Of a stretch of DNA of 58,702 bases, positions 1 through 28,047 are shown one piece after another. Position 1 is the first letter of the stretch. Each line of letters begins with the position of its first letter. The stretch covers positions 59,833 to 118,534 of the forward strand of contig MFBU01000014.1 in the NCBI GenBank assembly GCA_001775055.1. The letters run 5' to 3'. Below the pieces are notes generated by a model. The model was not told where the DNA came from, did no database searches, and saw nothing but the letters and a program-made list of their open reading frames with translations. The position numbers were made by a program, and so were the translations under genes. Source of the DNA: Candidatus Curtissbacteria bacterium RIFCSPLOWO2_02_41_11. Its GTDB lineage: Bacteria; Patescibacteriota; Microgenomatia; Curtissbacterales; GWA2-41-24.

Positions 1-1
1 T

Positions 2-1759
2 TTTGAGGATTTTTGTGAGGTTCACTTAATCAAAAATAATAAAGTAGTCACTTCCCAAACTTCTAAATCTCCTATTTCTGCACAAAAGATTGTTGGACTA
101 GTTGGTAGATTAAAAGAAGAAAGTCAAGAGCTCCCGTCAAGAATTATTGTCTTTGGGGCAAATGAAAGTTCTGACATTTTCCAAAAGTTATCAGCGGTCA
201 ACTGGCATGATATTTTTGTTCATGAACCAAAAATTGATATTGTCAGTGATGAAGATTTGGCAAAATCAGTTGCCTATGCCCAGGCTCAGGATATTTTAGG
301 ATATGAGCCGACAATCGGTTCAGATACCAAAGGTAAAAAAGAAATAAAAGAGAGCATTGCCGAAGCTTCCGGTGAATTCGGCTTCATTGAGGGTGAAGAT
401 ATTTTGCTTGATAAAGGGGATGAAGAGTCTGATCGTAAGATGCCTCCACTTGAGCAAAAACCAGATGAGGATTTAATAAAAAAACCGCATGCGTTTGAGA
501 AGGAAGAATATGCTGTTGAAATTGACTCAACAGCCGCAAGTCCTGCCGAGGCAGAATCTGCCGAAAAACCGGATTTTGGTGAACAATTGGCAACTGTTGC
601 CTATCTGCCAAAGATTTTCGGCCTTTTAAAAAAACGGCCACCCCTTAAAAATTTGCTTATTGCCGTCGCTATTTTATTGATCATTTTCCTTATTGGGAGT
701 TTTGTAGCCGCCCAAACATTAACTGAAGCAAAAATACGCATAAAAGTTAATGCCAAGCCCCAGGAATCGAATTTTAATGTCAGTGCCGCAAGCGGCGGTT
801 CATTCGACCAAGACAGGCAGCAGATTGCGGCGGAAGAAATCTCGGCTCAGGCCTCCGGTAACCAAAAGGCGGTAGCTACCGGCTCTAAAAAATTGGGTGA
901 AAAAGCCCACGGTGAGGTGACTGTTTTAAACTGGACGACTTCTCCCAAGGATTTTCCCTCCCAAACAGTGATTCTTTCCAAGGATGGCCTAAAATTTACG
1001 CTTGATGCTGATATAGCAGTTGCCTCCCGAAGCGCTTCAACTCCTGGACAGAGCAAAGTCACTGTCAAAGCAGTGGAAGTTGGGCCAAACGGCAATATTG
1101 ATGCGGGTAATGACTTTACTTTTCAGCAGTTTGATGATCTTTTATATTCGGCGCGCAATGACTTGGCCCTTACCGACGGAGCCGAGAGACAGGTAACGGT
1201 GGTTTCCCAAGAAGACCAAGACAGGCTTAATAAATCACTGACTGACTTGCTAACGGACAAAGCCAAACAAGATCTAATGTCAAAAGCTTCCGGCAAAAAA
1301 TTGGCAGATGAGGCGATTGTTGTTAAAGTTCTTAAAAAAGCATTCGATAAAAAAATCGATGAGGAGGCCTCACTGGTTAATCTGGATATGGAAGTTGAAG
1401 CCTCGGCAATCGTTTATGATGAGAATGATTTGAAAAAGCTGCTGGCAGAGTCCATCACCAATCTTCCCGAAAATCTGGAAGCCAGACCGGAAAATGTTGA
1501 AATAACTAAAATTGATTCTCAAAGAAAGAATGATACTCTTAGCCTTTCCGGAAGATTTCAGGCAGAGCTTGTGCCGAAATTTAATGAGGATGAACTCCGC
1601 GGAAAAATTGCCGGCAAAAGCGTTAAAGAGATAAGAGCAATTATTAAGGAGGTACCGGAAGTTACAGATGTTATTGTCGAATTTTCGCCAAACATTCCCC
1701 TTTTTAATCCGATTCCGCGCAATAAATCAAAGATAAAATTTGCAGTTGAGGCAAGTTAA
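2..1759 (+). CDS. 5'-truncated hypothetical membrane-anchored protein (one TM helix, large C-terminal extracytoplasmic domain)
   Basis: The frame of ORF 257..1759 has no stop back to nt 2, so the TTG at 257 is probably internal. Hydrophobic helix LLIAVAILLIIFLIGSFVAA. No nameable catalytic motif. Confidence 0.6.
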   Translation, partial: FEDFCEVHLIKNNKVVTSQTSKSPISAQKIVGLVGRLKEESQELPSRIIVFGANESSDIFQKLSAVNWHDIFVHEPKIDIVSDEDLAKSVAYAQAQDILGYEPTIGSDTKGKKEIKESIAEASGEFGFIEGEDILLDKGDEESDRKMPPLEQKPDEDLIKKPHAFEKEEYAVEIDSTAASPAEAESAEKPDFGEQLATVAYLPKIFGLLKKRPPLKNLLIAVAILLIIFLIGSFVAAQTLTEAKIRIKVNAKPQESNFNVSAASGGSFDQDRQQIAAEEISAQASGNQKAVATGSKKLGEKAHGEVTVLNWTTSPKDFPSQTVILSKDGLKFTLDADIAVASRSASTPGQSKVTVKAVEVGPNGNIDAGNDFTFQQFDDLLYSARNDLALTDGAERQVTVVSQEDQDRLNKSLTDLLTDKAKQDLMSKASGKKLADEAIVVKVLKKAFDKKIDEEASLVNLDMEVEASAIVYDENDLKKLLAESITNLPENLEARPENVEITKIDSQRKNDTLSLSGRFQAELVPKFNEDELRGKIAGKSVKEIRAIIKEVPEVTDVIVEFSPNIPLFNPIPRNKSKIKFAVEAS

Positions 1760-2491
1760 GTGAGTTTAGCCGTTTACATTAAGGCTCCGCCAATTTATCG
1801 AAAATTACCTAAGATTGCCAAAGATCACAGCAAGCGTGACCGTTTTTTTTACGGATTGATTTCGGCGGTTGGCGCATTTTCAATAGGTTTTGCCATTTGG
1901 CCCTATTTTGCTTGGCAATTAACCACTGCTTCAAAACTGACCCAAAAGATTGAAAAGTTTCCGATTCCCCAAGCCCAAGTACTGTCGGCAAGCACCATTC
2001 TGGCAAACGAAGTTCAAGTTGCCAAAGACTCGGATGGCTTTTCTTACTTCACGACGACTTATAAACCAGAAGGTACAAGACCAACCGAATTTTTTATAAC
2101 CGTTCCTAAACTTGAAATTAAGGATGCGCGTGTTTTGATCGATAGCCTGCGTTTTGACAAAAGCCTGGCTCATTTTCCAGGTAGCGCTCTACCCGGAGAA
2201 GTCGGCAATTCGTTTATCACCGGCCATTCAGTGTTGCCTCAATTTGCCGACCCAAAAAATTACTGGGCAATTTTTACCAAACTTTCGGATCTTGAGATAG
2301 GGGATAATGTTTATGTTGAGATTTCCGGCCAAAAACTAAGTTTTGTCGTCCAATACGCTAAAATTGTCGATTCCCGCGATCTTTCGGTTCTTTTACCAAT
2401 TTCGGCAACCGGCCGTAATTTAACGCTAATGACCTGTGTTCCTCCCGGCACTAATTTAAAGAGATTAGTTGTCATCACTGGTTTGCTTTAA
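1760..2491 (+). CDS. sortase-family transpeptidase
   Basis: N-terminal TM. ITGHS (His), LTLMTC (TLxTC Cys) and a downstream Arg (KRLVV) follow the sortase catalytic arrangement. GTG start directly after the previous stop. Confidence 0.85.
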   Translation: MSLAVYIKAPPIYRKLPKIAKDHSKRDRFFYGLISAVGAFSIGFAIWPYFAWQLTTASKLTQKIEKFPIPQAQVLSASTILANEVQVAKDSDGFSYFTTTYKPEGTRPTEFFITVPKLEIKDARVLIDSLRFDKSLAHFPGSALPGEVGNSFITGHSVLPQFADPKNYWAIFTKLSDLEIGDNVYVEISGQKLSFVVQYAKIVDSRDLSVLLPISATGRNLTLMTCVPPGTNLKRLVVITGLL

Positions 2492-2533
2492 AGCGGGTTC
2501 GAACTCCATTTCAATTTCTGCTAGACTATAGCC

Positions 2534-3178
2534 ATGAGCAAAAATGGTTTTGTGCTGCCTTTGGTATTAGTTGCGGCTGTCGGATTGGCGATAGCAGGAG
2601 CGGCTGTTTATTCCCAAATAAAACTGAATGTCACACAGCCGCCTCAACCCCTTCAAGAAACAAATCATGAGTCTCCCTCTTTAAATCAAACGCCAGTCCC
2701 AAGTCCGACTGCTACTGCCAAATCCATAATTGATAAGGTAACCGGTGTTCTTAGTATCCAAGAAGTTAATAGTAACAAAGATGCTTATGTTGGAAAGCAA
2801 ATAAGTGTCAGAGGCAAAATATATGTCCGGCATAATTATTCGTTGATGCCTTGCAACGCCAATGATCCCGAAACTTGTAATCCTGAAATTGGTGATCCGA
2901 CGCTTCATCTTGTCAATCCGGATAGTTCATCCATAACCCCGAGCGGTGGCCAAATTCTTGATCTTTATCGAAGCGTTTCTGGCGGAAAATATGAACCTGC
3001 TACCTGTAAGACTATCAATCAAAACACCGTTGATTGCGGAAAGTATCAGCAAAACGAAGTTACCGTTATTGAAGGGATATTTACCAGGGATAAAATTCCT
3101 TATCAGCAAGTAGGCGATTCCGCCGGCAACATCAAAACCCTCAAATACCAAGACATCTATTTCTTGGTTATTGAATAA
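2534..3178 (+). CDS. hypothetical secreted/membrane-anchored protein
   Basis: 214-aa ORF with an N-terminal hydrophobic signal/anchor (FVLPLVLVAAVGLAIAGAAV). No recognisable motif. Confidence 0.6.
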   Translation: MSKNGFVLPLVLVAAVGLAIAGAAVYSQIKLNVTQPPQPLQETNHESPSLNQTPVPSPTATAKSIIDKVTGVLSIQEVNSNKDAYVGKQISVRGKIYVRHNYSLMPCNANDPETCNPEIGDPTLHLVNPDSSSITPSGGQILDLYRSVSGGKYEPATCKTINQNTVDCGKYQQNEVTVIEGIFTRDKIPYQQVGDSAGNIKTLKYQDIYFLVIE

Positions 3179-3233
3179 TTAATTTATTTTTCCAATATTT
3201 GACAATTGATCTACAACCTTCGACAATTAGTTC

Positions 3234-3617
3234 GTGATTTTGGGAATTGATCTTGGGCAAAAGACCACTGGCATCGCTATCTCCGAGGGTAATTTTGCAT
3301 CCCCATACACAACCATCAAACACCAAACAATTAAAGAGGCAGTTTCTAAAATATCTAAAATTTGTGATGAGTTAGGTGTTAAAAAGCTGGTTGTCGGTTT
3401 TGTCGAAGGCAAAATTAAATCCTATTTTCAAAAATTTGCCAAAATTTTTGAAAGAATCAATCCAGAAATTGAGGTTATTTTGTGGGACGAAACCATGACT
3501 ACTAGACAAGCCCGAAGTTACATGATAAAACTGCAAATACCTAAGATTAAAAGAGCAAAAAAGGAACATCAAGTAGCGGCTTCTATTATTTTACAAAGCT
3601 ACCTTGACAGTTTATGA
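3234..3617 (+). CDS. ruvX: Holliday junction resolvase-like nuclease RuvX/YqgF
   Basis: N-terminus ILGIDLGQKTTGIAIS is typical of the YqgF family. 127 aa. GTG start. Confidence 0.85.
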   Translation: MILGIDLGQKTTGIAISEGNFASPYTTIKHQTIKEAVSKISKICDELGVKKLVVGFVEGKIKSYFQKFAKIFERINPEIEVILWDETMTTRQARSYMIKLQIPKIKRAKKEHQVAASIILQSYLDSL

Positions 3618-3823
3618 TTAAAAAAATACTTGCTCCGGTTCAGGCCTGGATTTTGCTTCAGGGCAAATGTGTGGGTTGTGGCCGAAGTTTAGCACTAAGT
3701 CGCAAAATTGAAAGAGGCAACAATACCCAAAAAGTAATTTGTTCCTGTGGCCGCATTTTTATCTTCGATAAAAGAACGGGTAAGTATCACCGGGCAACCT
3801 TTGTGGAGGCCAAAGTTGATTAG
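3614..3823 (+). CDS. small four-Cys zinc-ribbon protein, function unknown
   Basis: CVGCG ... CSCG motif pair. ATGA start/stop overlap with ruvX. Confidence 0.5.
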   Translation: MIKKILAPVQAWILLQGKCVGCGRSLALSRKIERGNNTQKVICSCGRIFIFDKRTGKYHRATFVEAKVD

Positions 3824-4802
3824 GAAGAAATTTCTTATCTTTTCCATTTTATTTGTCGTTTTAATACTTGCGCCGATCGTTTTAAATCAGTACTACAATT
3901 ATTTACTCAAATCCCGATCGACACAGGAATCCTTCCAAATTTTCATCATCAAGCCCGGCCAGCCGATTGCCCAAATTGCCAAAAATCTTGAAAAAGCGGG
4001 ACTTGTCAAAAATGCCCTTGCCTTTAGACTTTTAGTTGCCCAGATGGGAATTGCCAAAAATATCCAATATGGTGATTTTCGCTTGTCACCTAACAAAACT
4101 TCCCGTGAGATCGCTCAGGAGCTAACTCATGGCGCAATAGATGTGTGGGTTACTTTGCCTGAAGGCATGCGTGTCGAGCAGCAGGCTGATTTGATTGAGT
4201 CCAAGCTGAAAGTTTCCTCCAATGACAAATATCAGTTTGACAAGAAAGAATACATTAAGCTTGCCCAAGAAGGTTATATGTTCCCGGATACTTATCTGAT
4301 TGCCAAAGATGCTGCCGCCAAAGATATCGTTGAAAGACTGCGCCAAACTTTTGATGAAAAAGTTGCTAAGAATTTGTTAGTGACAAGCTCAGGTCTGAGC
4401 GAGGATGAGATTGTGATTTTGGCTTCACTTATTGAAAAAGAGGCCAAAAGCGATGAAGAAAGGTCGACAATTGCCGGAATTTTATTAAACAGGGTCGACG
4501 TAGGTATGGCTTTGGAAGTTGATGCAACAGTTTCTTATGCCAAAGGTTATGATAGCGCAAATAATACTTGGTGGCCAACGGTAACCGTAGCTGATTACAA
4601 AAGCGTGAAATCATCTTATAATACTTATCTTAATGCGGGTTTGCCACCGGCACCCATTGCCAGTCCTGGTCTTGAGTCCATTAGATCTGCAGCTAGTCCT
4701 GCCCAAACAGACTACTTTTACTATCTTCATGATTCAAAGGGCCAAATCCACTATGCCAAGACAGTTGAAGAACACAACAAAAACATCCAAGATTTTCTCT
4801 AA
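3816..4802 (+). CDS. mltG: endolytic murein transglycosylase MltG (YceG-like)
   Basis: N-terminal TM, then LASLIEKEAKSDEER...AGILLNRV and YNTYLNAGLPPAPIASPG, as in YceG/MltG. Start uncertain: TTG 3816 is chosen, but the ORF is open from 3747. Confidence 0.85.
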   Translation: MIRKKFLIFSILFVVLILAPIVLNQYYNYLLKSRSTQESFQIFIIKPGQPIAQIAKNLEKAGLVKNALAFRLLVAQMGIAKNIQYGDFRLSPNKTSREIAQELTHGAIDVWVTLPEGMRVEQQADLIESKLKVSSNDKYQFDKKEYIKLAQEGYMFPDTYLIAKDAAAKDIVERLRQTFDEKVAKNLLVTSSGLSEDEIVILASLIEKEAKSDEERSTIAGILLNRVDVGMALEVDATVSYAKGYDSANNTWWPTVTVADYKSVKSSYNTYLNAGLPPAPIASPGLESIRSAASPAQTDYFYYLHDSKGQIHYAKTVEEHNKNIQDFL

Positions 4803-4822
4803 AATTAGTTTGAATTGTAAAA

Positions 4823-4851
4823 TTGACACTTAATATCAAATTTGATATAAT
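4823..4851 (+). promoter_or_regulatory. consensus-like sigma70 promoter with embedded 16-bp perfect palindrome (putative HigA-like operator)
   Basis: TTGACA(4823)-N17-TATAAT(4846) preceded by TG. The spacer contains ATATCAAATTTGATAT. The -10 box ends only 3 nt before the ATG at 4855, so the transcript start or leader is unclear. Confidence 0.5.
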
Positions 4852-4854
4852 TTA

Positions 4855-5211
4855 ATGGATTTTAAAATAGTCTTTTACAAAGACAGTTTTGGCAAAAGTC
4901 CTATTGAAGAATTTTTTCTAAAACTTGCCAGCAGCAATAGATTACTATTGGCCAAAGCTCGGGAAGGGATCGAGAAGTTAAGAAATAGAGCTTATCACAG
5001 AGAACCTTTATCCAAGTACATAGAGCAAGGATTATGGGAACTAAGAGTAAGATCAAATAATGACATATTAAGAATTCTGTATACTTTTACTAAAGGACAA
5101 ATAATTATTTTATTGCACGTTTTTATTAAAAAACAACAAAAAACGTCCAAAAGTGAACTGGAAATTGCCAGGAAAAGACTCAAAGAATTAATAGCAAGGA
5201 AAGATTCATGA
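4855..5211 (+). CDS. RelE/HigB-like toxin (phage Gp49-like family)
   Basis: 118 aa. Motifs GLWELRV...ILRILYTF...IILLHVF are typical of Gp49/HigB-like toxins. 4-nt overlap with the downstream HTH gene. Confidence 0.75.
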   Translation: MDFKIVFYKDSFGKSPIEEFFLKLASSNRLLLAKAREGIEKLRNRAYHREPLSKYIEQGLWELRVRSNNDILRILYTFTKGQIIILLHVFIKKQQKTSKSELEIARKRLKELIARKDS

Positions 5212-8551: not shown

Positions 8552-9619
8552 TCAGCCTAAGGTTAAATTTGAGTATCCGTGTTCAGCCAATATGTCAGTG
8601 ATTTTTAAAGGTTTATTTTCTCTCGTTGAAACTTTTTGAGTTTTCATTGAAATTAAAACATTTTTAGCTAGTTCTCTGATAACCGGAACCGACACACTGT
8701 TTCCGAATTGTTTATATGCTTGTAGATCACTAACTGGAATCATAAAAGAGTCGGGGAATCCTTGAAGACGTGCTGCTTCACGGGGTGTTAATTTTCTAGG
8801 ATTTTTTCCTTTTTGCTCAATTAAAATTTCCGACCCGTCCTTATAGTATCTGGCGGATATTGTGTTCGTGTATGAAGATTTTTCGCTGAATAGTCCATAA
8901 CCGAATCCATTTCCTTTTAATCTGTGCTCAATTTTTCTTCTTTTATGACCAGACCAAAGTTTGTCAGATATTGTATATTTTGGATCAAATTTTTTTTCAA
9001 GAATATCGCCTACTTTTGTTTTTTCTCTTGATGGGTTAGGGAAAGAAAAGCCAGCTTTACCAAGAAATGCCACTATATAAATTCTTTCCCTATTTTGAGG
9101 TAAACCAAAATCCTTTGCATTCAAAACCTTATGATAGACATTGTAACCAAGCTGGGTTAGAGTTTTATTAATTACTCTTAGCGTATTGCCGTTGTCGTGT
9201 GTACGAAGTCTCTTTACATTTTCCAAAAAAACAACCTTAGGCTTATGATAGTCTACTATTTTTGAAATATCGAAAAACAAAGTTCCTCGGGTGTCCCCGA
9301 AGCCTTTTTTAGTGCCTGCCTGTGAAAAAGGCTGGCAAGGGAAACCTGCTAAAAGAATATCAAAAAAAGGAATTTGCTCAGGTTTTATTTTTGTAATATC
9401 ACCACAAGGTATTTCTTTAAAATTGGCTTGATATGTAATCTGACAAGGACGATCCCATTCAGAAGAGAAAACACATTCGCCACCGAGGTCTTCAAATGGG
9501 ATTCTAATACCTCCAATTCCCGCAAAGAGATCAATGAATGTAAATTGTGACTTCATTTTTGAATTTGGGCTATCGAATAAAGATTTTATTTGGAGACTGT
9601 TTAATTTCGGGTAGGGCAT
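8552..9619 (-). CDS. dcm: DNA (cytosine-5)-methyltransferase
   Basis: FIDLFAGIGG (motif I), GFPCQPFS (motif IV), ENV (VI), QNRERIYIV (VIII), TPREAARLQGFPD, GNSVSVPV (X). The start may be the internal Met at 9556. Confidence 0.95.
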   Translation of the reverse strand: MPYPKLNSLQIKSLFDSPNSKMKSQFTFIDLFAGIGGIRIPFEDLGGECVFSSEWDRPCQITYQANFKEIPCGDITKIKPEQIPFFDILLAGFPCQPFSQAGTKKGFGDTRGTLFFDISKIVDYHKPKVVFLENVKRLRTHDNGNTLRVINKTLTQLGYNVYHKVLNAKDFGLPQNRERIYIVAFLGKAGFSFPNPSREKTKVGDILEKKFDPKYTISDKLWSGHKRRKIEHRLKGNGFGYGLFSEKSSYTNTISARYYKDGSEILIEQKGKNPRKLTPREAARLQGFPDSFMIPVSDLQAYKQFGNSVSVPVIRELAKNVLISMKTQKVSTRENKPLKITDILAEHGYSNLTLG

Positions 9620-11700: not shown

Positions 11701-11820
11701 GCGGGCTTGCCCTGAGCTTAGTTTACACTGAGTTTATCGAAGTGAAGGGAAGGACGTCAAACGTCCCAGGGAAATTGCAATTGTGGAAGAATAAACTTTA
11801 TTCAGAAGTTAAAGAATATT
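11701..11820 (+). repeat. island repeat: GC-rich module + R, copy 2
   Basis: gcgggcttgccctgag...gaagggaaggacgtcaaacgtcccaggg followed by gaaattgcaattgtggaagaataaactttattcagaagttaaagaatatt. The GC-rich part recurs at 12915..12963. Confidence 0.65.
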
Positions 11821-12914: not shown

Positions 12915-12983
12915 CCGGCTTGCCCTGAGTTTTGCCGAAGGGAAGAACGTCAAACGTCCCAGGGAAATTGCAATCGTGGAAAA
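12915..12983 (+). repeat. island repeat: GC-rich module + R first half, copy 3
   Basis: ccggcttgccctgagttttgccgaagggaagaacgtcaaacgtcccagggaaattgcaatcgtggaaaa is near-identical in blocks to 11703..11790. Confidence 0.65.
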
Positions 12984-13022: not shown

Positions 13023-13445
13023 TTACAAATCCGATGCCAATTTATAGCCTTTTGATTTATAGACCTTATCAAAACTAAAGATCGCATCTGCTTCATATTC
13101 GTCTGCAACGGCCATAACTACACAGTCGAACAAGGTATTTTTCTTACCTGTTGTCGGCCTGAAATAGTTTATCGCATTTGTTAAAGTATTTTGATTTACT
13201 TCTGCAACATTAACGTTTGGATCAGCAAAAACAGCAGCTGTGCCGTAAGCAGTTGCACCGCTATTAAGTCTTCCTTGTAGCACAGTTGTAGCCTCTAAAA
13301 CCGCAGTTGCCGGATAAATAACCTGAGCGCCTAGATTATTAAGTTTATCTGAAATGCTAACAGCACGCCCGTGGTTAGAATCATTGGGATAAGCTTGGGC
13401 TACAATAGCATCTGCATCAACAATTACCACTGGCGAATTACTCAT
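13023..13445 (-). CDS. vapC: PIN-domain toxin (VapC-like)
   Basis: VVIVDADAIVA at the N-terminus plus later acidic residues. 8-nt overlap with the upstream small RHH gene. Confidence 0.7.
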   Translation of the reverse strand: MSNSPVVIVDADAIVAQAYPNDSNHGRAVSISDKLNNLGAQVIYPATAVLEATTVLQGRLNSGATAYGTAAVFADPNVNVAEVNQNTLTNAINYFRPTTGKKNTLFDCVVMAVADEYEADAIFSFDKVYKSKGYKLASDL

Positions 13446-13704
13446 TGCTGTTTTTATTTATTCCCCAAAGGTATTTATCTAAATTTGCAGATAAATCCCT
13501 GGGGCCTTTGGGCTTATACTTTTCTCCAACTTCGGCAATTTTGAGCAATGCACGGGCAGAAACAGTTCCTTGTTGAGCCACAGCAGAAATGCCTTTTTCC
13601 AAAGCTTGTCTTATTATTTCTGCCTTACTCTTTTTTTGAGTTTCAGCGGTAAGCTTTATTCTTTTTTCTAATTGTTCCGGAATATAAAGATATGTTTTTA
13701 GCAT
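13438..13704 (-). CDS. vapB: ribbon-helix-helix antitoxin (VapB/CopG-like)
   Basis: MLKTYLYIPEQLEKRIKLTAETQKKSKAEIIRQALEKG is an RHH pattern. The internal Met at 13704 is preferred over the ORF start at 13755. Confidence 0.65.
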   Translation of the reverse strand: MLKTYLYIPEQLEKRIKLTAETQKKSKAEIIRQALEKGISAVAQQGTVSARALLKIAEVGEKYKPKGPRDLSANLDKYLWGINKNSNE

Positions 13705-13770
13705 GTTATAAGTATAATATGTTGTACAACATGTTGTCAACCAGTTCCTTATCACAGAAGGTTTGTTGTC

Positions 13771-13835
13771 ACATCCACTTCCGAGGTGTACTGGGTTTGC
13801 ACATCGGGATTATTCCTCCATTCTCAAATTCTTCC
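13771..13835 (+). repeat. hairpin repeat family H, copy 1
   Basis: acatccacttccgaggtgtactgggtttgcacatcgggattattcctccattctcaaattcttcc. Differs from 14432..14496 at 2 positions. Stem ccgaggtg/cacatcgg. Confidence 0.8.
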
Positions 13836-14029: not shown

Positions 14030-14332
14030 ATGGCAAAAAGATTATTCGTTGGAAATCTTACCTACAGTGCGACAAGCGCACAATTAGAGGAACTTTTTTC
14101 TCAGGTAGGAAAAATTACCAGCCTAAATTTAATTACAGACAAATTTTCTGGCCAAAGCAAAGGTTTTGCTTTTGTGGAATTAACCACAGATGCAGAAGCC
14201 GATGAAGCGATTAAAAAATTCAACAATTTTGAATTGGATGGTCGAAAAATGGTCGTTAACGAGGCACGCCCTCAAGAGAAGAAAGACAGTTCAGGCGGCG
14301 ACAGAAGATACGACAAACCAAGAAGTTGGTAA
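14030..14332 (+). CDS. RRM-type RNA-binding protein
   Basis: RNP-2 LFVGNL and RNP-1 KGFAFVEL. Strong SD (aaggagg) upstream. Confidence 0.9.
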   Translation: MAKRLFVGNLTYSATSAQLEELFSQVGKITSLNLITDKFSGQSKGFAFVELTTDAEADEAIKKFNNFELDGRKMVVNEARPQEKKDSSGGDRRYDKPRSW

Positions 14333-14431: not shown

Positions 14432-14496
14432 ACATCCACTTCCGAGGTGTACTGAATTTGCACATCGGGATTATTCCTCCATTCTCAAATTCTTCC
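14432..14496 (+). repeat. hairpin repeat family H, copy 2
   Basis: Near-identical to 13771..13835. Lies 73 nt upstream of the start of ORF 14569. Confidence 0.8.
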
Positions 14497-21600: not shown

Positions 21601-22366
21601 GCCTGGCACTCAGTTGACAATGAGGACATTTCATACCGGTGGTATTGTCGGTTTGGACATTACCCAGGGTTTGCCGAGAGTAGAGGAACTTTTTGAAGCC
21701 AGGATGCCAAAGTTTGCTGCGGCTATTTCAGACATCACCGGTAAGATTAAAATTGAAGAATCTCCTCAAGGATTTCTGATTAAAATTAAAAGTACCAATC
21801 TCAAACCGCCGGTTGAACGTGAGTATTTTGTCCCGCCAACTTCGGAACTAACTGTTTCTAATGGTCAGCTAGTTACTGCCGGAATGCCCCTCTCAAGCGG
21901 CTATTTGGATGTTAAGGAAATTCTGGCAGTTTCCGGACTGCGCGCTGCCCAAAAATACATCACCAGTGGAGCTCAAGAGGTTTATGAAAGCCAGGGAGTA
22001 ACTATTAATGATAAACATTTCGAAGCCATTGTGCGAAAAATGAGTGACAAAGTTAGGATTGAATCGCCCGGCGATACGGTCCTTTTACCTGGAGAGCTAA
22101 TTGATAAAAATCGTTTTGAGGAAGAAAACGCTAAGGTTCTCGCAGAAGGCGGGGAGCCGGCAACTGCGCAAGTAATCATCCTGGGAATTACCAGGGCAGC
22201 TCTTTATACCGAGAGTTTTCTTTCAGCCGCTTCATTCCAAGAGACAACCAGGGTCTTGACCGATGCTGCTATTGAGGGCAAAGTGGATAATCTCCTTGGT
22301 CTTAAAGAAAACGTCATTATCGGAAGACTCATACCAACATCGCCCGAAAGGGCGCAGATACAATGA
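18683..22366 (+). CDS. rpoC: DNA-directed RNA polymerase subunit beta'
   Basis: 1227 aa. Zn-finger CYCGKY...CDKCGVEV, catalytic NADFDGDQMAVH, LNRAPTLHRLGIQAF. ATGA overlap with rpoB. Confidence 0.98.
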   Translation: MNELIDFEALKITLSSSEDIKTWSFGEVTKPETINYRTLKPEKDGLFDERIFGPTKDWECYCGKYKRIRYRGIICDKCGVEVTQSRVRRERMGHITLAAPVVHNWFFKGSPSKLGLILDLSPRSLDAVVYFASYLAIEVADEVKKQVIKKLNGELEKKRKEGQLELKKKLEEQEKEAQKEISKIKTGGKVKEQTDLKIEEARLSMRQRQAKLRDENAVEILRLEEIYKNITDMVSSIKPLDILSEEEYLKLADYNAEGFLKVGMGAEALYQVLEKIDLAELSIKLREEILRATGQKYIRATKKLRVVESMKKSGILPTWMIVKILPVLPPDLRPMVQLSGGRFATSDLNDLYRRVINRNNRLKKLIELGAPEIILRNEKRMLQEAVDALIDSQRIKSTRASQELRSLSDMLRGKQGRFRQNLLGKRVDYSGRSVIVVGPELTLNQAGIPKEMALEMFKPFVLREVIAKGYAPNVKSAKHYLERRSGEVWDILEEVTKNHPILLNRAPTLHRLGIQAFYPILIEGDAIRIHPCICAGFNADFDGDQMAVHVPLSAKSKEEAANLMVAGKNLLRPADGSPITLPNKEMALGVYYLTSQDAQSSEYQNVFANELDVILALNSGKIRLRQPIKMKAAGEVIETTAGRVLFNMQLPEVLRFINEAVSASTIKRLISVAIDQLSEAEVIDLIDRLKGFGFEGATFSGLSVSVFDCMIVDEKKQILQKAEKEVEAIEKNFRQGLITKDEQKRLSQEVWLSVTNNLADLTWKSLPKDNSIKIISDSGGSRATAEQIKQLAAIRGLVTDPSGQIVPLPVKSNFREGLSVFEYFTSARGARKGLADRAIKTAESGYLTRRLVDVAHDAIIRVEDCATHEGIIISKNDRRLASFTARLVGRVTAADIIFSKTKKVLVKAGSLIDEQMASEIEKNGFEEILVRSVLACEAKYGLCAMCYGKDLVTRNLVAIGTPVGVIAAQSIGEPGTQLTMRTFHTGGIVGLDITQGLPRVEELFEARMPKFAAAISDITGKIKIEESPQGFLIKIKSTNLKPPVEREYFVPPTSELTVSNGQLVTAGMPLSSGYLDVKEILAVSGLRAAQKYITSGAQEVYESQGVTINDKHFEAIVRKMSDKVRIESPGDTVLLPGELIDKNRFEEENAKVLAEGGEPATAQVIILGITRAALYTESFLSAASFQETTRVLTDAAIEGKVDNLLGLKENVIIGRLIPTSPERAQIQ

Positions 22367-22377
22367 GTCTAAAGATA

Positions 22378-22399
22378 ATATCAGACGAAGTGCTGATAT
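22378..22399 (+). repeat. ATATCAG/CTGATAT palindromic element A (minimal form)
   Basis: atatcag-acgaagtg-ctgatat. Lies between the rpoC stop and the relic rpoC 3' end. Confidence 0.65.
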
Positions 22400-22448
22400 A
22401 ATTGGCCGATTGATTCCAACCAGCCCTGAACGTGCAAGGATTCAGTAA
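22398..22448 (+). pseudogene. relic second copy of the rpoC 3' end
   Basis: Encodes IIGRLIPTSPERARIQ* vs authentic IIGRLIPTSPERAQIQ* (22316..22366). Almost every codon differs synonymously. It is in a different frame from rpoC. Confidence 0.8.
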
Positions 22449-22469
22449 ACCGGTCAATTCTGATATAAT
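22441..22469 (+). promoter_or_regulatory. putative rpsL promoter (extended -10)
   Basis: TGaTATAAT at 22461..22469 with a weak -35 TTCAGT 17 nt upstream. A second TGATATAAT lies at 22394..22402 inside element A. Confidence 0.45.
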
Positions 22470-22492
22470 CTGAAGATCAATTGGAGCATAGT

Positions 22493-22987
22493 ATGCCGAC
22501 AGTTAATCAACTTATAAGAAAAGGTCGAAAGTCAAAGCCAAAAAGAATAAGAGCAACGGCGCTTCGCCGTGCTTTTAACACGCATAAAAATAGGTACGTT
22601 TATTATCCTTCCGGTCAAAAAAGAGGTGTTTGCGTGGTTGTTAAAACCATGACACCCAAAAAACCGAATTCGGCGCTTAGAAAAGTTGCCAGAGTCCGTC
22701 TTTCCAATAAGCAAGAAGTAACTGCTTATATTCCAGGAATTGGCCATGAACTGGCCGAGCATTCGGTTGTTTTAATTCGCGGTGGCAGAGTTAGGGATTT
22801 ACCCGGAGTTAAATACCACATAATTCGAGGTAAATACGATACCACTGGTGTTGTTGGCAGGAAACAAGGACGCTCTTTATACGGTACTAAAATATCGGGT
22901 GCAGTTACGGGAGCCCAAGCGGCAGCAACTGTTGGTCAGGCGGCAGCAGTCTCACAGGCTCAAGTCGAAGCACCAGCAGAAGGCTAA
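22493..22987 (+). CDS. rpsL: 30S ribosomal protein S12 with about 30-aa Ala/Gln-rich C-terminal extension
   Basis: [13 protein letters not shown]...[15 protein letters not shown]...[20 protein letters not shown] 22493 is preceded by ggag. Confidence 0.95.
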
Positions 22988-23095
22988 TTTAAAAAGTAAA
23001 AATGAAAAAGGAAAAAGTAAATTTTCAATTTTCACTTGCCGAAAGCAACGCAAAGCTTTTCAATTTTCAATTTTGCGACCGAAGGGAGCATTATT

Positions 23096-23590
23096 GTGCC
23101 ACGAACTGGTAAGGTTGAAAAAAGACAAATTGCGCCAGATCCAATCTATCAAAGTCCTCAAGTTGCCAAGCTTGTTAATAAACTGATGATTTCCGGTAAG
23201 AAAGCTTTGGCGCAAAGAATTATTTATGAAGCTTTTAAATTAATTGCCAAAAAAGATAAAGATCCACTGGCGACATTTGAAAAGGCTCTGGAAAATGTTA
23301 CACCCAAAATGGAAGTTCGGCCAAGAAGAGTCGGTGGAGCTTCTTACATGGTCCCGATGGAAGTTAGAGGTGTCAGAAGAATGTCGCTTGCCATTTCTTG
23401 GTTGGTTGTTGCAGCCAGAAGCCGCACCCCTAGTGAAGTAGAAAAGCTTAAGAATAAACCGCTGATGATTTCTAAACTTACAGCCGAGATTTTAGATGCT
23501 GCCGAAGGCACTGGAAAGGCAGTTGCCAAAAGGGAAGAAATGCACCGCATGGCTGAGGCAAACAAAGCGTTCGCACACTTCAGGTGGTGA
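23096..23590 (+). CDS. rpsG: 30S ribosomal protein S7
   Basis: VPRTGKVEKRQIAPDPIY...MEVRPRRVGGASYMVP...ANKAFAHFRW. GTG 23096 follows gaagggag. The ORF track start at 23036 is probably too early. Confidence 0.95.
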   Translation: MPRTGKVEKRQIAPDPIYQSPQVAKLVNKLMISGKKALAQRIIYEAFKLIAKKDKDPLATFEKALENVTPKMEVRPRRVGGASYMVPMEVRGVRRMSLAISWLVVAARSRTPSEVEKLKNKPLMISKLTAEILDAAEGTGKAVAKREEMHRMAEANKAFAHFRW

Positions 23591-23602
23591 ACGAACGCTT
23601 TG
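23563..23602 (+). other. perfect 11-bp inverted repeat enclosing the rpsG stop codon
   Basis: caaagcgttcg (23563..23573) pairs with cgaacgctttg (23592..23602). The loop contains ...agg tgg tga. Confidence 0.7.
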
Positions 23603-23675
23603 TGCAGTCCTCCTAAATTTGCTCCTCGAGCCGTCTATGGATAATAGTGAAAAGGCGAGAGGTAAGAATTGGAGG

Positions 23676-23708
23676 GCAAATAAGGCTTTCGCACATTTTC
23701 GTTGGTAA
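23676..23708 (+). pseudogene. relic copy 2 of the rpsG 3' end
   Basis: gca aat aag gct ttc gca cat ttt cgt tgg taa = ANKAFAHFRW*. Identical peptide to the authentic end, with synonymous differences. Confidence 0.8.
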
Positions 23709-23783
23709 CGAAAATACTTGCAACTGCCTTGCGAGTACTGCGCTTGCTATCTAGATCGTTGTCAGATAGCACTCCGTACTCTA

Positions 23784-23810
23784 AAGGCTTTTGCCCACTT
23801 TCGTTGGTAA
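23784..23810 (+). pseudogene. relic copy 3 of the rpsG 3' end
   Basis: aag gct ttt gcc cac ttt cgt tgg taa = KAFAHFRW*. Confidence 0.75.
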
Positions 23811-23921
23811 TAGACTACTCGCCACAAATTCACCCAATGTGCTATAATCTGCGCTTAGTTTTGATTATTGTCAACAAGGCTATTTTTCTGCTTAAATAAA
23901 ATTTGTTAAGGATATTTGAAT

Positions 23922-24215
23922 ATGGTGCAAGCTAAAGCTCAAAAATTAAAACAATTAAAAAACAGGCTCAAAGAGCTTGAAGAAGTCAAGCTCAAAGAGG
24001 CGCTGGCCAAATATGGCGAGGCCTACCAAGAGTCCGGTTCGGCCTGGAATGAAAATGCTGCCTGGGAGCTTGCGGATGAAGAAGTTTCGGTACTTCGTGC
24101 AATGATTACCGAAATCAAAAATGAAATCAGAAATCTTGAGCATCCGGCAATTTCCCAGCTTAACGTTGAACCTCAAACTTCAAAAGCTGGTAAAAAATAT
24201 TCCAATTCCAAATAA
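23922..24215 (+). CDS. small coiled-coil protein resembling the GreA/GreB N-terminal domain only
   Basis: GEAYQESGSAWNENAAWELADEEVSVLRAMITEIKNEI parallels the GreA pattern (..GD..ENAEY.AA.E.Q....I..I). There is no C-terminal domain. aagga SD lies 8 nt before the ATG. TGcTATAAT at 23839..23847 lies upstream. Confidence 0.45.
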   Translation: MVQAKAQKLKQLKNRLKELEEVKLKEALAKYGEAYQESGSAWNENAAWELADEEVSVLRAMITEIKNEIRNLEHPAISQLNVEPQTSKAGKKYSNSK

Positions 24216-24228
24216 GACAGAAACTGCC

Positions 24229-24279
24229 ATGACACAGAAACAAAATAGACTGTATCCGCTTGACCGAATTCGCAATATA
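24229..24279 (+). pseudogene. relic copy of the fusA 5' end
   Basis: MTQKQNRLYPLDRIRNI vs authentic [17 protein letters not shown] (24374..). Divergence is synonymous. Homology stops exactly where palindromic element B begins. Confidence 0.75.
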
Positions 24280-24339
24280 TCAGCAGGTCGCCTTGGCACA
24301 ATTCTTCGAATTCGTGCCAAGGGCGCTCCTCTGATATAT
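24275..24339 (+). repeat. ATATCAG/CTGATAT palindromic element B
   Basis: atatatcagcaggtcgcc-[ttggcac aattc ttc gaatt c gtgccaa]-gggcgctcctctgatatat. The outer arms are the reverse complement of those in element C. The inner hairpin differs. Confidence 0.75.
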
Positions 24340-24373
24340 TGCTTGTTAGACTCGATGTCGAAAGGAGTTAATC

Positions 24374-26503
24374 ATGCCTGATAAAAACTCTCGACTATAT
24401 CCATTAGAAAGAATACGCAATATTGGTATTATTGCCCATATTGACGCGGGCAAAACCACGACAACTGAACGAATCCTTTTTTATACAGGCAAGACTTATA
24501 AACTGGGCAACATCGATGAAGGTAGCACCGTAACCGATTGGATGGCCCAGGAGAAAGAAAGAGGAATCACCATTGTATCGGCAGCAGTTACCACCTTCTG
24601 GATACCAAAAGAAGGTCCCTTTGCCGGTACTGAAACTCGGATTAATATCATTGATACTCCGGGTCACGTTGACTTTACGGCCGAGGTTGAAAGGTCACTT
24701 CGCGTTTTGGATGGTGGTGTAACAGTTTTAGACGCCGAGGAAGGCGTTCAATCGCAATCGGAAACAGTTTGGCGTCAGGCCGACAAATACAAAGTACCCC
24801 GAATTTGCTTTATCAACAAAATGGATAAAATGGGGGCAGACTATTTTGCCACTCTTAAATCAATCCGTGAGCGCCTTGGGGCTCCGGCCTGCCCATATAA
24901 TTTGCCATTAGGCCGCGAAAATGAATTTCAGGGAATCATTGACCTTTTGACTCAAAAAGCCTACGTCTGGAAAGACGAAACTGGTATGAAATTTGAAGAA
25001 ATTCCCATTCCAGAAGAGGAAAAGGCCAATGTTGAAAAATATCGGCACGAGCTTGTGGAAAAGATTGCCGAAAATGACGATACTTTACTCGAAAAATATT
25101 TAAAAGGCGAGCAAATTGAGACCGACGAGCTTAAGAAAGCTTTGAGGAAAGCCGTTATTACCTATAAAATCGTCCCGGTTTTGGCAGGTTCCAGTCTTCG
25201 CAATAAAGGAGTCCAGCCGCTTCTTGATGCAGTTGTTGATTATTTACCATCACCTCCAGATATTGTCGAGATTCAAGGAATTAATCCGAAAACCGGCGGA
25301 AAGGAAGTTCGTAAGCAAACTATAGATGCTCCTTTCTGCGGTTTGGCTTTCAAAATCCAAATTGATCCGCATGTCGGCAAACTTACTTATGTGCGAATTT
25401 ATTCCGGTACTTTAAAATCCGGGACTTCGGTTTTAAACGCCACTAGACACGATCGTGAAAGAATTGGCCGAATTCTTTTGATGCATGCCAATACCAGGGA
25501 AGAAATTGCTGAAAGCTATGCCGGAGAAATTATTGCTATTGTCGGACTCAAAAACACGGCCACAGGCGATACTCTTTGCAATGAGGCCGCTCCGATAATC
25601 TTAGAAACTATATCCTTTCCCGAACCGGTTATTTCCATGGCCATCGAACCTAATACCAAAGCGGATCAAGAAAAACTAGGTTACGCCTTAGGCAGGCTTA
25701 GTGAGGAAGATCCTACTTTTAAAATTAAAAGCGATTTTGAAACCGGTCAAACGATTATTTCCGGTATGGGCGAACTTCACTTAGAAATTTTGGTTGATCG
25801 TATGAAGCGCGAATTTGCGGTTGACGCCAAAGTCGGCAGACCTCAAGTTGCCTATAAAGAAACCATCGCAGGGCAAGCAACAGGTGAAGGTAAATACATT
25901 AGGCAATCCGGAGGCAGGGGTCAGTACGGCCATTGTTTCCTGCGGGTCGAACCTAAACCCCGCGGCGAAGGCTACGAATTTAAATCCGAAATCAAAGGCG
26001 GGGCGATTCCACAAGAATTTATACCGTCTGTTGAGAAGGGCGTTCGCGAAAAAATGGATATGGGTGTTTTAGCGGGTTTTCCGATGGTTGATATGAAAGT
26101 TGCTGTTTATGACGGAACTTATCACGATGTCGATTCTTCGGATATTGCCTTTAAAATCGCAGGAAGCTTGGCGCTCGAAGCGGCCGCCAAAAAAGCAGGC
26201 CTTACTCTTCTTGAGCCGATTATGAAAGTTGAAGTAACCATTCCTGAACAGTTCATGGGAGATGTTATTGGCGATTTATCGGCAAAACGGGCTCAAATTC
26301 TTTCAAGCGAACACCACGGCAAAAGTGTCATCATTACTGCTTTGGTACCACTTTCGGAAATGTCCGGATATGTGACAACTTTACGTTCTATGACTCAAGG
26401 CAGAGGTTCTGTCTATATGGAACCTTCTCACTACGAAGAAGTCCCCCAAAATATTGCAGATAAAATAGTGGCGAAAGCGAAAGGGGAGAGTAAAGAAAGC
26501 TAG
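24374..26503 (+). CDS. fusA: elongation factor G
   Basis: [38 protein letters not shown]. 709 aa. Confidence 0.98.
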
Positions 26504-27965: not shown

Positions 27966-28047
27966 ATATCTCAGCTCAGCTGAGTCTGATATATCAGAGG
28001 AGCGCCATTGCGAGGACTTTAGTCTCGCAAGGCGACCTGCTGATATA
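27966..28047 (+). repeat. ATATCAG/CTGATAT palindromic elements C0 (27966..27992) and C (27989..28047), sharing the junction ctgatatatcag
   Basis: C = atatatcagaggagcgcc-[attgcgagga cttta gtctcgcaa]-ggcgacctgctgatata. C0 = atatc(tc)ag-ctcagctgag-tctgatat. Confidence 0.7.

Follow-up and report, generated by a model that had tools for sequence, protein, structure and literature searches.

Downstream of rpsG, the gene of ribosomal protein S7, a stretch of DNA of 58.7 kb (58,702 nucleotides, nt) from Candidatus Curtissbacteria, a lineage of the candidate phyla radiation (CPR), holds three consecutive versions of the end of that gene, which we read, with a probability of roughly 0.7, as the traces of two insertions, one after the other and both in register, into the last rpsG codons. 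Each insert would have been a strongly hairpin-forming cassette of ~70–120 nt, free of open reading frames (ORFs), which came from a diverged relative and contained, besides a stop codon and one or two hairpins, its own version of the final S7 codons with synonymous differences; the end on the cassette would have taken over as the in-frame S7 end, and the resident end, pushed downstream and left untranslated, would have slowly decayed. The whole stretch (the window) was compared with fetched loci, designated by L-numbers (160 in the search for donors); relics were counted in 58 distinct related loci and in 73 loci from other phyla, and 80 further loci were drawn from metagenomes with the alignment of ORF99, the small gene that follows rpsG, as query; the relatives and the window are metagenome assemblies throughout. 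The nearest species representatives, among which are metagenome-assembled genomes (MAGs) named Curtissbacteria, have an S7 identity of 70–76%.

The gene itself (rpsG, 23096..23590, + strand, with a GTG start and a TGA stop; Pfam Ribosomal_S7, E=2.5e-53) ends in copy 1 (23558..23590, +), which reads ANKAFAHFRW* in the rpsG frame, the asterisk being the TGA at 23588-23590. Copy 2, ANKAFAHFRW* with TAA, lies at 23676-23708 (+), its homology to the gene probably beginning at ~23671, in Glu-Ala codons with a 1-nt insertion (23671..23708), and copy 3, (TL)KAFAHFRW* with TAA, lies at 23784..23810 (+), the position of the in-frame stop in genomes that are free of such units; these two share one common frame, other than that of rpsG, and the tandem units are spaced by 118 nt and 102 nt. 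Translation thus gives the longer peptide twice and KAFAHFRW* once, as the original prediction had described, and its statement that the codon choice differs while the peptide is kept holds equally: over the 27 nt common to all, copy 2 departs from copy 1 at 7 positions and copy 3 at 8, every one of them synonymous. The string AHFRW* never arose in 200,000 shuffles of 23591-23915, and from 23780 on the flank aligns with the relic and promoter region of L083. The three-copy array is 100% identical in L081, L082 and L085, metagenome contigs with different Joint Genome Institute (JGI) dataset prefixes, which argues against an assembly artefact, and homologous arrays are also found in MAGs of other projects. 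A stop-free +1 ORF is present at 23496-23708.

Which of the ends is the resident one can be read from two empty-site pairs. At rpsG, L137 is set against L104 and L007, whose S7 genes are 94% identical to its own: the L137 relic with the 123 nt downstream of it agrees at 142 of 150 positions with the in-frame end and downstream sequence of L104 and L007, while the last 27 in-frame nt of L137 agree with those of L104 at 20 of 27, an insert of ~73 nt lying between; the L137 relic later gained a Trp-to-stop change. At rpoC, where a relic of the same kind had been claimed, the window does carry two ends of the form IIGRLIPTSPERA(Q/R)IQ*, 61% identical to one another, the in-frame one at 22316-22366 and the relic at 22398-22448, and the counterpart L083, ~95% identical to the window in this gene, has a single end. 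Taken per 60 nt, the identity of the two up to 22317 is 78–100%, with all segments but one at 85% or more, and over the last 51 nt of rpoC the in-frame end of the window matches L083 at 33/51 positions and the relic at 47/51. Since the relic matches L083 and the in-frame end does not, this is an 82-nt insertion and the relic (IIGRLIPTSPERARIQ*, 22398..22448, +) is the resident rpoC end; the rpoC cassette (22318..22399, +, 82 nt) is composed of 17 recoded codons, TGA and two hairpins (free energy, dG, -29.1; z -5.7).

Both pairs show the downstream copy to be the resident end and the in-frame end to stand on a short foreign insert, by which the gene end is restored, as it encodes the same peptide. 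In the S7 array, copy 2 agrees with the in-frame ends of L083 and L088 at 24/27 positions each, and copy 1 at 21/27 (L083) and 18/27 (L088), so that copy 1 together with its hairpins H1 and H2 (~23564-23681) is the newest insert. Copy 1 had been called the authentic end; it is instead the newest, imported one, and copy 2 is the relic of the previous in-frame end. The order of age would then run from copy 3, the oldest relic, through copy 2 to copy 1 with its TGA and its 11-bp hairpin.

The relics were searched for with a degenerate peptide consensus, allowing up to 3 mismatches. In the 18 relics, which belong to 15 of the 58 distinct loci, 95 nucleotide differences are synonymous and 16 fall in changed codons. 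As the synonymous sites are nearly saturated and the replacement sites intact, the neutral decay of a local duplicate is impossible, and the two copies must have diverged while each was a functional gene end in a lineage of its own. They are 61–89% identical overall (74–89% for the rpsG repeats), and the substitutions are of mixed types (C>T, A>G, G>T, A>C), all synonymous in the window, with AGR/CGN arginine switches and transversions among them. Hairpin types are 84–97% identical between genomes whose S7 is only 61–73% identical (47/49 between the window and L088, with S7 at 61%; 35/36 between L004 and L146), whereas the window and L083, 93% identical, have different types (28/49). Being shared across diverged genomes and differing in near-identical ones, the cassettes move horizontally. 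The relic of L102 bears the Ala-to-Ser change of its host lineage, and the L102 hairpin is identical at 31/34 positions to that of L006, which has Ala. Once displaced, the relics are not maintained and are decaying leftovers, as is seen from stops (L110, L137) and frameshifts (L109, L146), and others are degraded or truncated (L119, L097); their frame relative to the gene is random, with 7/18 in frame. A mosaic is found in L082 (Ga0209431_10019922, 1-5153), where the units of the S7 array are 100% of the window's type and the sequence from ~469 on is 99.9% of the L083 type, which points to recombination in nature or else to a chimeric assembly of co-occurring strains.

Cassette 1 (23564..23681, +), the 118-nt unit that carries the recoded S7 end, the TGA, the 3′ arm of H1 and the whole of H2, has a left limit which, as in all the inserts, is known only to within a few nt. 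It is specific to the lineage of the window, being absent from L083 (~90–95% identical elsewhere) and 100% identical in L081, L082 and L085. H1 (23562..23603, +; dG -18.5 kcal/mol, z -3.8) lies over the stop codon and is built on the perfect 11-bp inverted repeat that had been reported there, CAAAGCGTTCG (23563-23573) and CGAACGCTTTG (23592-23602), unique in the window. H2 (CCTCC...GGAGG, 23608..23676, +; dG -27.5, z -4.0), the second hairpin of cassette 1, is of a type shared with L156 and with L097, where it contains a nested mini-element. In H3 (23682..23730, +; dG -15.1, z -3.6) copy 2 contributes AAGGC, whose pairing partner is GCCTT at 23726-23730, and the inner stem of the hairpin, ATTTTCG/CGAAAAT (23695-23715), places the stop of copy 2 in the loop TTGGTAA, which bears out the smaller hairpin ATTTTCG-TTGGTAA-CGAAAAT noted earlier at this copy. 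The body of cassette 2 (23709..23783, +) begins with the S7 end in inverted and diverged form (23709-23730), after which comes H4, a member of the family GCCTTGCG-hairpin-CTA (dG -25.7, z -4.5) and the hairpin that agrees with its L088 counterpart at 47/49 positions. The inserts are of 70–118 nt and ORF-less.

The array is situated between the end of rpsG and a promoter-like site for ORF99-fusA-tuf (23819..23848, +), whose TG-extended -10 box, TGCTATAAT, is at 23840-23848 (10/12 matches, TG present); this site is the right border of the hot spot, and a -10-like motif is found at the equivalent place in the spacers of relatives. No terminator-like site with a T-run was called in 23590-23850, where the hairpins are stable and T-tail-less, and in Rfam 15 the sole match of the window is a tRNA-Pro, the best one within 22250-24450 (E >=0.39) being far under the thresholds. 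Ahead of the next promoter, the hairpins most likely serve the transcript as a stabiliser or barrier at its 3′ side, yet the units are dispensable, given that the spacer can be as short as 13 nt (L002). As the array is absent from most relatives, and the spacer of some is so short, we regard it as tolerated or selfish, and not as required.

At least 15 of the 58 distinct related loci have 1–3 extra S7 ends downstream of rpsG, and several more have decayed ones; an S7-end relic after rpsG is found in none (0/73) of the loci from other phyla. The number of units at this site is 0, 1, 2 or 3, with none in most relatives, and this range, the two empty-site pairs and the unrelated genes inserted in the spacer of many relatives support the proposal that insertions or replacements occurred serially at one hot spot of an essential operon. 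The usual unit consists of a stop, the complement of the upstream codons, (A)AGCYTTGCG, a variable hairpin, CTA, and the relic AAR GCN TTY GCN CAY TTY CGN TGG TAR. The complement after the stop follows the local codons (GCTCAT/ATGAGC, GCACAT/ATGTGC, CATTTTCG/CGAAAATG, CAAAGCGTTCG/CGAACGCTTTG), so that, on the question of whether the hairpin over the stop is conserved, no single hairpin sequence is, and what recurs is that the bases after the stop complement the local synonymous codons. Units of the form GCCTTGCG-CTAAARGC are found in the window and in L001-L007, only after rpsG. A decayed second S7 end also lies directly after the in-frame stop, and hairpin-free, in L135 (~629-660); either relics do not need a cassette, then, or the one in L135 has been lost.

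For rpoC and rpsG, the genes to which the original prediction had assigned the process, it stands, but in this lineage it is wider than claimed and extends to both ends of fusA and to rpsJ. Relics of the rpoC C-terminus are found in the window, L002/L151, L145 and L159; relics of the fusA N-terminus in the window (24229-24278), L002 and L083; relics of the fusA C-terminus in 8 loci; and a relic of the rpsJ C-terminus in L123. The last of these (S10, ~9455-9560) lies behind a CTTGCGAG...CTCTCTAAAA hairpin, and fusA C-terminus relics lie behind a GTTTACCCTGAGC...GTCGAAGG mini-hairpin in L087, L094, L105/L003, L112/L004, L132, L153 and L155; the same mini-hairpin is also nested within another cassette in L097. 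The other ~45 kb of the window yielded no further relics.

The relic of the fusA start (MTQKQNRLYPLDRIRNI, 24229..24278, +), displaced upstream, is 95% identical in L083 and L082, and between it and the current start of fusA (24374) lies the palindromic element TATATCAG...CTGATATA (24276..24338, +; 63 nt, dG -33, z -7.8). In L083 and L082 the relic is the same, but the interior of the palindrome and the replacement N-terminus (MASSSNSRLYP...) are different. The palindrome is dispersed: it occurs 2–3 times in the 58.7-kb window, again at 27989-28047, and at other loci in relatives, its spacers being tuf-rpsJ, ORF99-fusA and rpoC-rpsL, with 93% identical copies in the rpoC-rpsL spacers of L002 (5241-5295), L151, L159 and L160. 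Its right arm, CTGATATAAT, resembles a -10 box of the TG-extended kind, and AGGAG is found in the left arm; the element could be a promoter or leader that is mobile.

As to the enzymology of the insertion, we infer that co-occurring Curtissbacteria would have exchanged the cassettes by taking up DNA and recombining with it, the left junction being formed by alignment in the conserved codons and the right one where the foot of the hairpin shares a 5-nt microhomology with the gene. At rpsG the identity at the junction is AARGC, which forms the base of the hairpin and also the Lys-Ala codons; at rpoC the junctions always overlap ATAAT (in the window, L002/L151, L145 and L159), which belongs both to the -10 box of the downstream promoter, CTGATATAAT, and to the Val-Ile-Ile codons, GTCATAATT. 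Such short identities at the junctions of cassette and relic would favour recombination between diverged alleles. Selection would have done the rest: because these genes are essential and retain only products that keep the peptide, all the survivors would look peptide-preserving. Finally, recombination within the two conserved gene ends that bracket a unit could lead to its gain, exchange or loss, which would account for the 0–3 units and for the hairpin swap between the window and L083.

Several points weigh against this account. In the 160 loci neither the exact cassette 1 nor the exact rpoC cassette was found as a native single end, the best partial donor matches being 27 identical nt in L120 (a 22-nt BLAST match) and 85% identity over 61 nt in L156. 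Classical homology-anchored recombination usually leaves a donor tract, and none is visible upstream of the insert in either empty-site pair. The boundary between cassette and relic is constant within each cassette type, as a site-specific enzyme would also make it. The consensus-based search favours intact relics, and the synonymous excess is thereby inflated, although the two empty-site pairs do not depend on that search. The data are metagenome assemblies only, and the mosaic of the window and L083 types in L082 could be chimeric.

The same footprint would be left by an enzymatic, site-specific route, in which the cassettes are non-autonomous single-strand hairpin transposable elements, similar to palindrome-associated transposable elements (PATEs) or to REP (repetitive extragenic palindromic) elements, that target a conserved sequence in the gene end, carry a replacement end and are mobilised by a transposase or recombinase encoded elsewhere. 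To this we assign a rather low probability, although it would fit with junctions that are precise and identical per cassette type, with repeated insertion at one point, with the two hairpins in each of the three cassettes of the window, with high-identity cassettes common to diverged hosts, and with a dispersed palindrome whose copies in distant genomes are 93% identical. A gene for an IS200-like Y1 transposase (Pfam Y1_Tnp, 2e-12) is also found in the same rpsG-ORF99 interval of L158, L132/L136, L133 and L134 (five loci, at least three of them distinct), but the inverted-repeat hairpins that flank it (AGGGACGGTCCT...) are unlike the cassettes, and no sequence links the gene to them; a repeat search found no inverted repeats. 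In the 58.7-kb window no transposase or recombinase was found with the Y1 query, no recombinase scan of the whole window having been made. The confinement of the GCCTTGCG-CTAAARGC units to the rpsG site, the fact that one hairpin family adjoins relics of different genes, which is hard to understand for an element with a fixed gene end, and the L135 relic that directly follows the stop without a hairpin also speak against it.

Even more doubtful is that the array is a selected RNA device, a 3′-end stabiliser, terminator or translation-sensing switch, in which the copies of the gene end are kept as 5′ arms of hairpins or for alternative pairings (GCCUU with an upstream or downstream AAGGC). In its favour, 23550-23830 forms four consecutive hairpins (z = -6.35), each stable individually, the bases after each stop complement the actual upstream codons, and the array lies just upstream of a promoter-like site; but the units are missing in most relatives, some of which make do with the 13-nt spacer, the terminal relics stand outside any strong hairpin arm and some have stops or frameshifts, and pairing cannot account for whole codons that stay synonymous through transversions and AGR/CGN switches, apart from the lack of T-runs after the hairpins, of a called terminator-like site in 23590-23850 and of an Rfam match. 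Least probable of all, and largely refuted, are a local slippage duplication followed by drift, the translation of the relics by readthrough, frameshifting or hopping, and an assembly artefact. Units in tandem 118 and 102 nt apart might suggest the first of these, stop-free inter-copy spacers in multiples of three (75 nt in the window, 57 nt in L004, 51 nt in L006) and the +1 ORF the second, and the fact that all data are assemblies the third. However, slippage does not agree with copies 61–89% identical, near saturation at synonymous sites and intact at replacement sites, nor with a close relative that is matched by the relic and not by the in-frame copy; readthrough, frameshifting and hopping are refuted by the random frame of the relics and by their internal stops; and against an artefact stand the array in three separate metagenome contigs and the homologous arrays in MAGs of other projects.

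Other candidates were rejected as well. A diversity-generating retroelement does not apply, the substitutions not being adenine-specific and an ORF of the size of a reverse transcriptase being absent from the interval; the core motifs and spacings of integron attC-like sites and CRISPR-like arrays do not match; no curated RNA family reached the gathering score or E-value threshold (Rfam 15); and the stable hairpins, having no T-run, are not intrinsic (Rho-independent) terminators. Two degenerate patterns, one for the palindrome and one for the S7 unit, gave no match in IMG/VR which would indicate a phage origin. From a site-specific integrative element with a tyrosine or serine recombinase the inserts differ in being ORF-less and of 70–118 nt, with flanking repeats that are not identical (74–89% at rpsG, 61% at rpoC).

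Elements of the latter kind are among the closest known systems to the insertion and replacement of gene ends proposed here. Integrative and conjugative elements, integrative and mobilizable elements and prophages integrate in the 3′ ends of tRNA or protein genes, including rpsI, rplL and rpmG in streptococci, and undergo tandem “accretion” (PMC5357655, PMC5704250). As in those elements, insertion takes place inside a conserved gene end, a replacement end is supplied, the old partial end is left on the far side and arrays of repeats are formed; unlike them, the inserts of the window are of 70–120 nt, ORF-less and without integrase, the flanking repeats are 61–89% identical and are not attachment (att) cores, with a junction identity of only ~5 nt (AARGC, ATAAT), N-terminal gene ends are also hit, and the process recurs at several essential genes in one CPR lineage. 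Homology-facilitated illegitimate recombination in natural transformation (reviewed in PMC3240628) and merodiploids generated by transformation (PMC3784515) offer another comparison, in that foreign DNA would be joined by homology on one side, microhomology of a few bp lies on the other, here at the right junction, and the recipient is duplicated in part; the differences are that no donor tract is visible upstream, that the process recurs at few sites in many genomes, and that products of the type seen in the window seem to spread between species.

Small palindromic repeats, such as REP and bacterial interspersed mosaic elements (BIMEs), miniature inverted-repeat transposable elements (MITEs) and the PATEs of IS200/IS605, populate intergenic regions (PMC3184786, PMC3733652, PMC2229807), and they have in common with the cassettes that they are short ORF-less hairpin units at gene ends, to which may be added that TATATCAG...CTGATATA is dispersed and that a Y1 gene is at the same hot spot in some relatives. 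In contrast, the cassettes carry a recoded copy of the end of the neighbouring gene, which REP, MITEs and PATEs do not, and the S7-type unit is undispersed in the sequence at hand. With homing elements (introns, inteins and free-standing homing endonuclease genes) they share the use of a conserved coding sequence as a universal target and a host gene that remains functional; but there is neither splicing nor an endonuclease gene, and function is kept by a replacement end and not by the removal of the insert. A limited literature search found no description of the phenomenon. As a tentative proposal, to which we give only limited credence, Curtissbacteria may harbour an undescribed class of ORF-less, hairpin-forming, ~70–120-nt, “gene-end-carrying” homing cassettes, which would invade the conserved termini of rpoC, rpsG, fusA and rpsJ in register, do no harm thanks to the recoded terminus that they supply as a replacement, stack into arrays and pass from one species to another, perhaps in the form of single-stranded DNA by way of a host enzyme or an IS200-like HUH enzyme. 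If an enzyme were responsible, this would be a new minimal mobile DNA that inserts in essential genes without splicing.

That, in one lineage of very small, uncultured bacteria, the termini of a core operon with some of the most conserved genes of the cell (those of the RNA polymerase beta′ subunit, S7, EF-G and S10) are repeatedly overwritten by short foreign patches is unexpected. The relics constitute a dated, directional record of horizontal exchange and could serve to trace recombining partners in a CPR community. For annotation and phylogeny, it matters that marker genes can end in xenologous codons and that relics yield spurious small ORFs.

The order of genes in the window is rpoB-rpoC-rpsL-rpsG-ORF99-fusA-tuf-rpsJ, the immediate neighbours of the array being rpsL, the GreA_N-like ORF99 and fusA. 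ORF99 (23922-24215) encodes a small coiled-coil protein of 97 residues with a weak match to the GreA/GreB N-terminal domain (GreA_N, E=0.0011), under the Pfam cut-off; it is between rpsG and fusA in 7/8 genomes checked, the motif search having missed L003, where there is a similar ORF, and its homologues occupy the rpsG-fusA interval in nearly all the relatives examined. In relatives, the rpsG-ORF99 spacer is also a hot spot for the insertion of whole genes, such as a patatin-like lipase (L004, 6710-7660), a sigma-70-type factor (L111) and the Y1 transposase, and ORFs of the spacer that are without family match or unscanned are among those of L087, L121, L128, L148, L150 and L153.

In the same operon, rpsL (S12, 22493-22987) has an Ala/Gln-rich C-terminal extension of ~35 residues, which is also present in relatives. 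Just upstream of the rpoB region, at 13023-13755 on the - strand, overlapping small genes encode a PIN-domain protein and a ribbon-helix-helix protein, probably a toxin-antitoxin pair of the VapBC type. A direct repeat of 65 nt (13771-13835 and 14432-14496, 97% identical, 661 nt apart) flanks the gene of an RRM-domain protein of 100 residues (14030-14332) and resembles repeats that border a short block of inserted DNA, and another of 45 nt (11744-11788 and 12937-12981, 96% identical, 1193 nt apart) flanks two short ORFs, one of which has a fragmentary match to a ResIII helicase.

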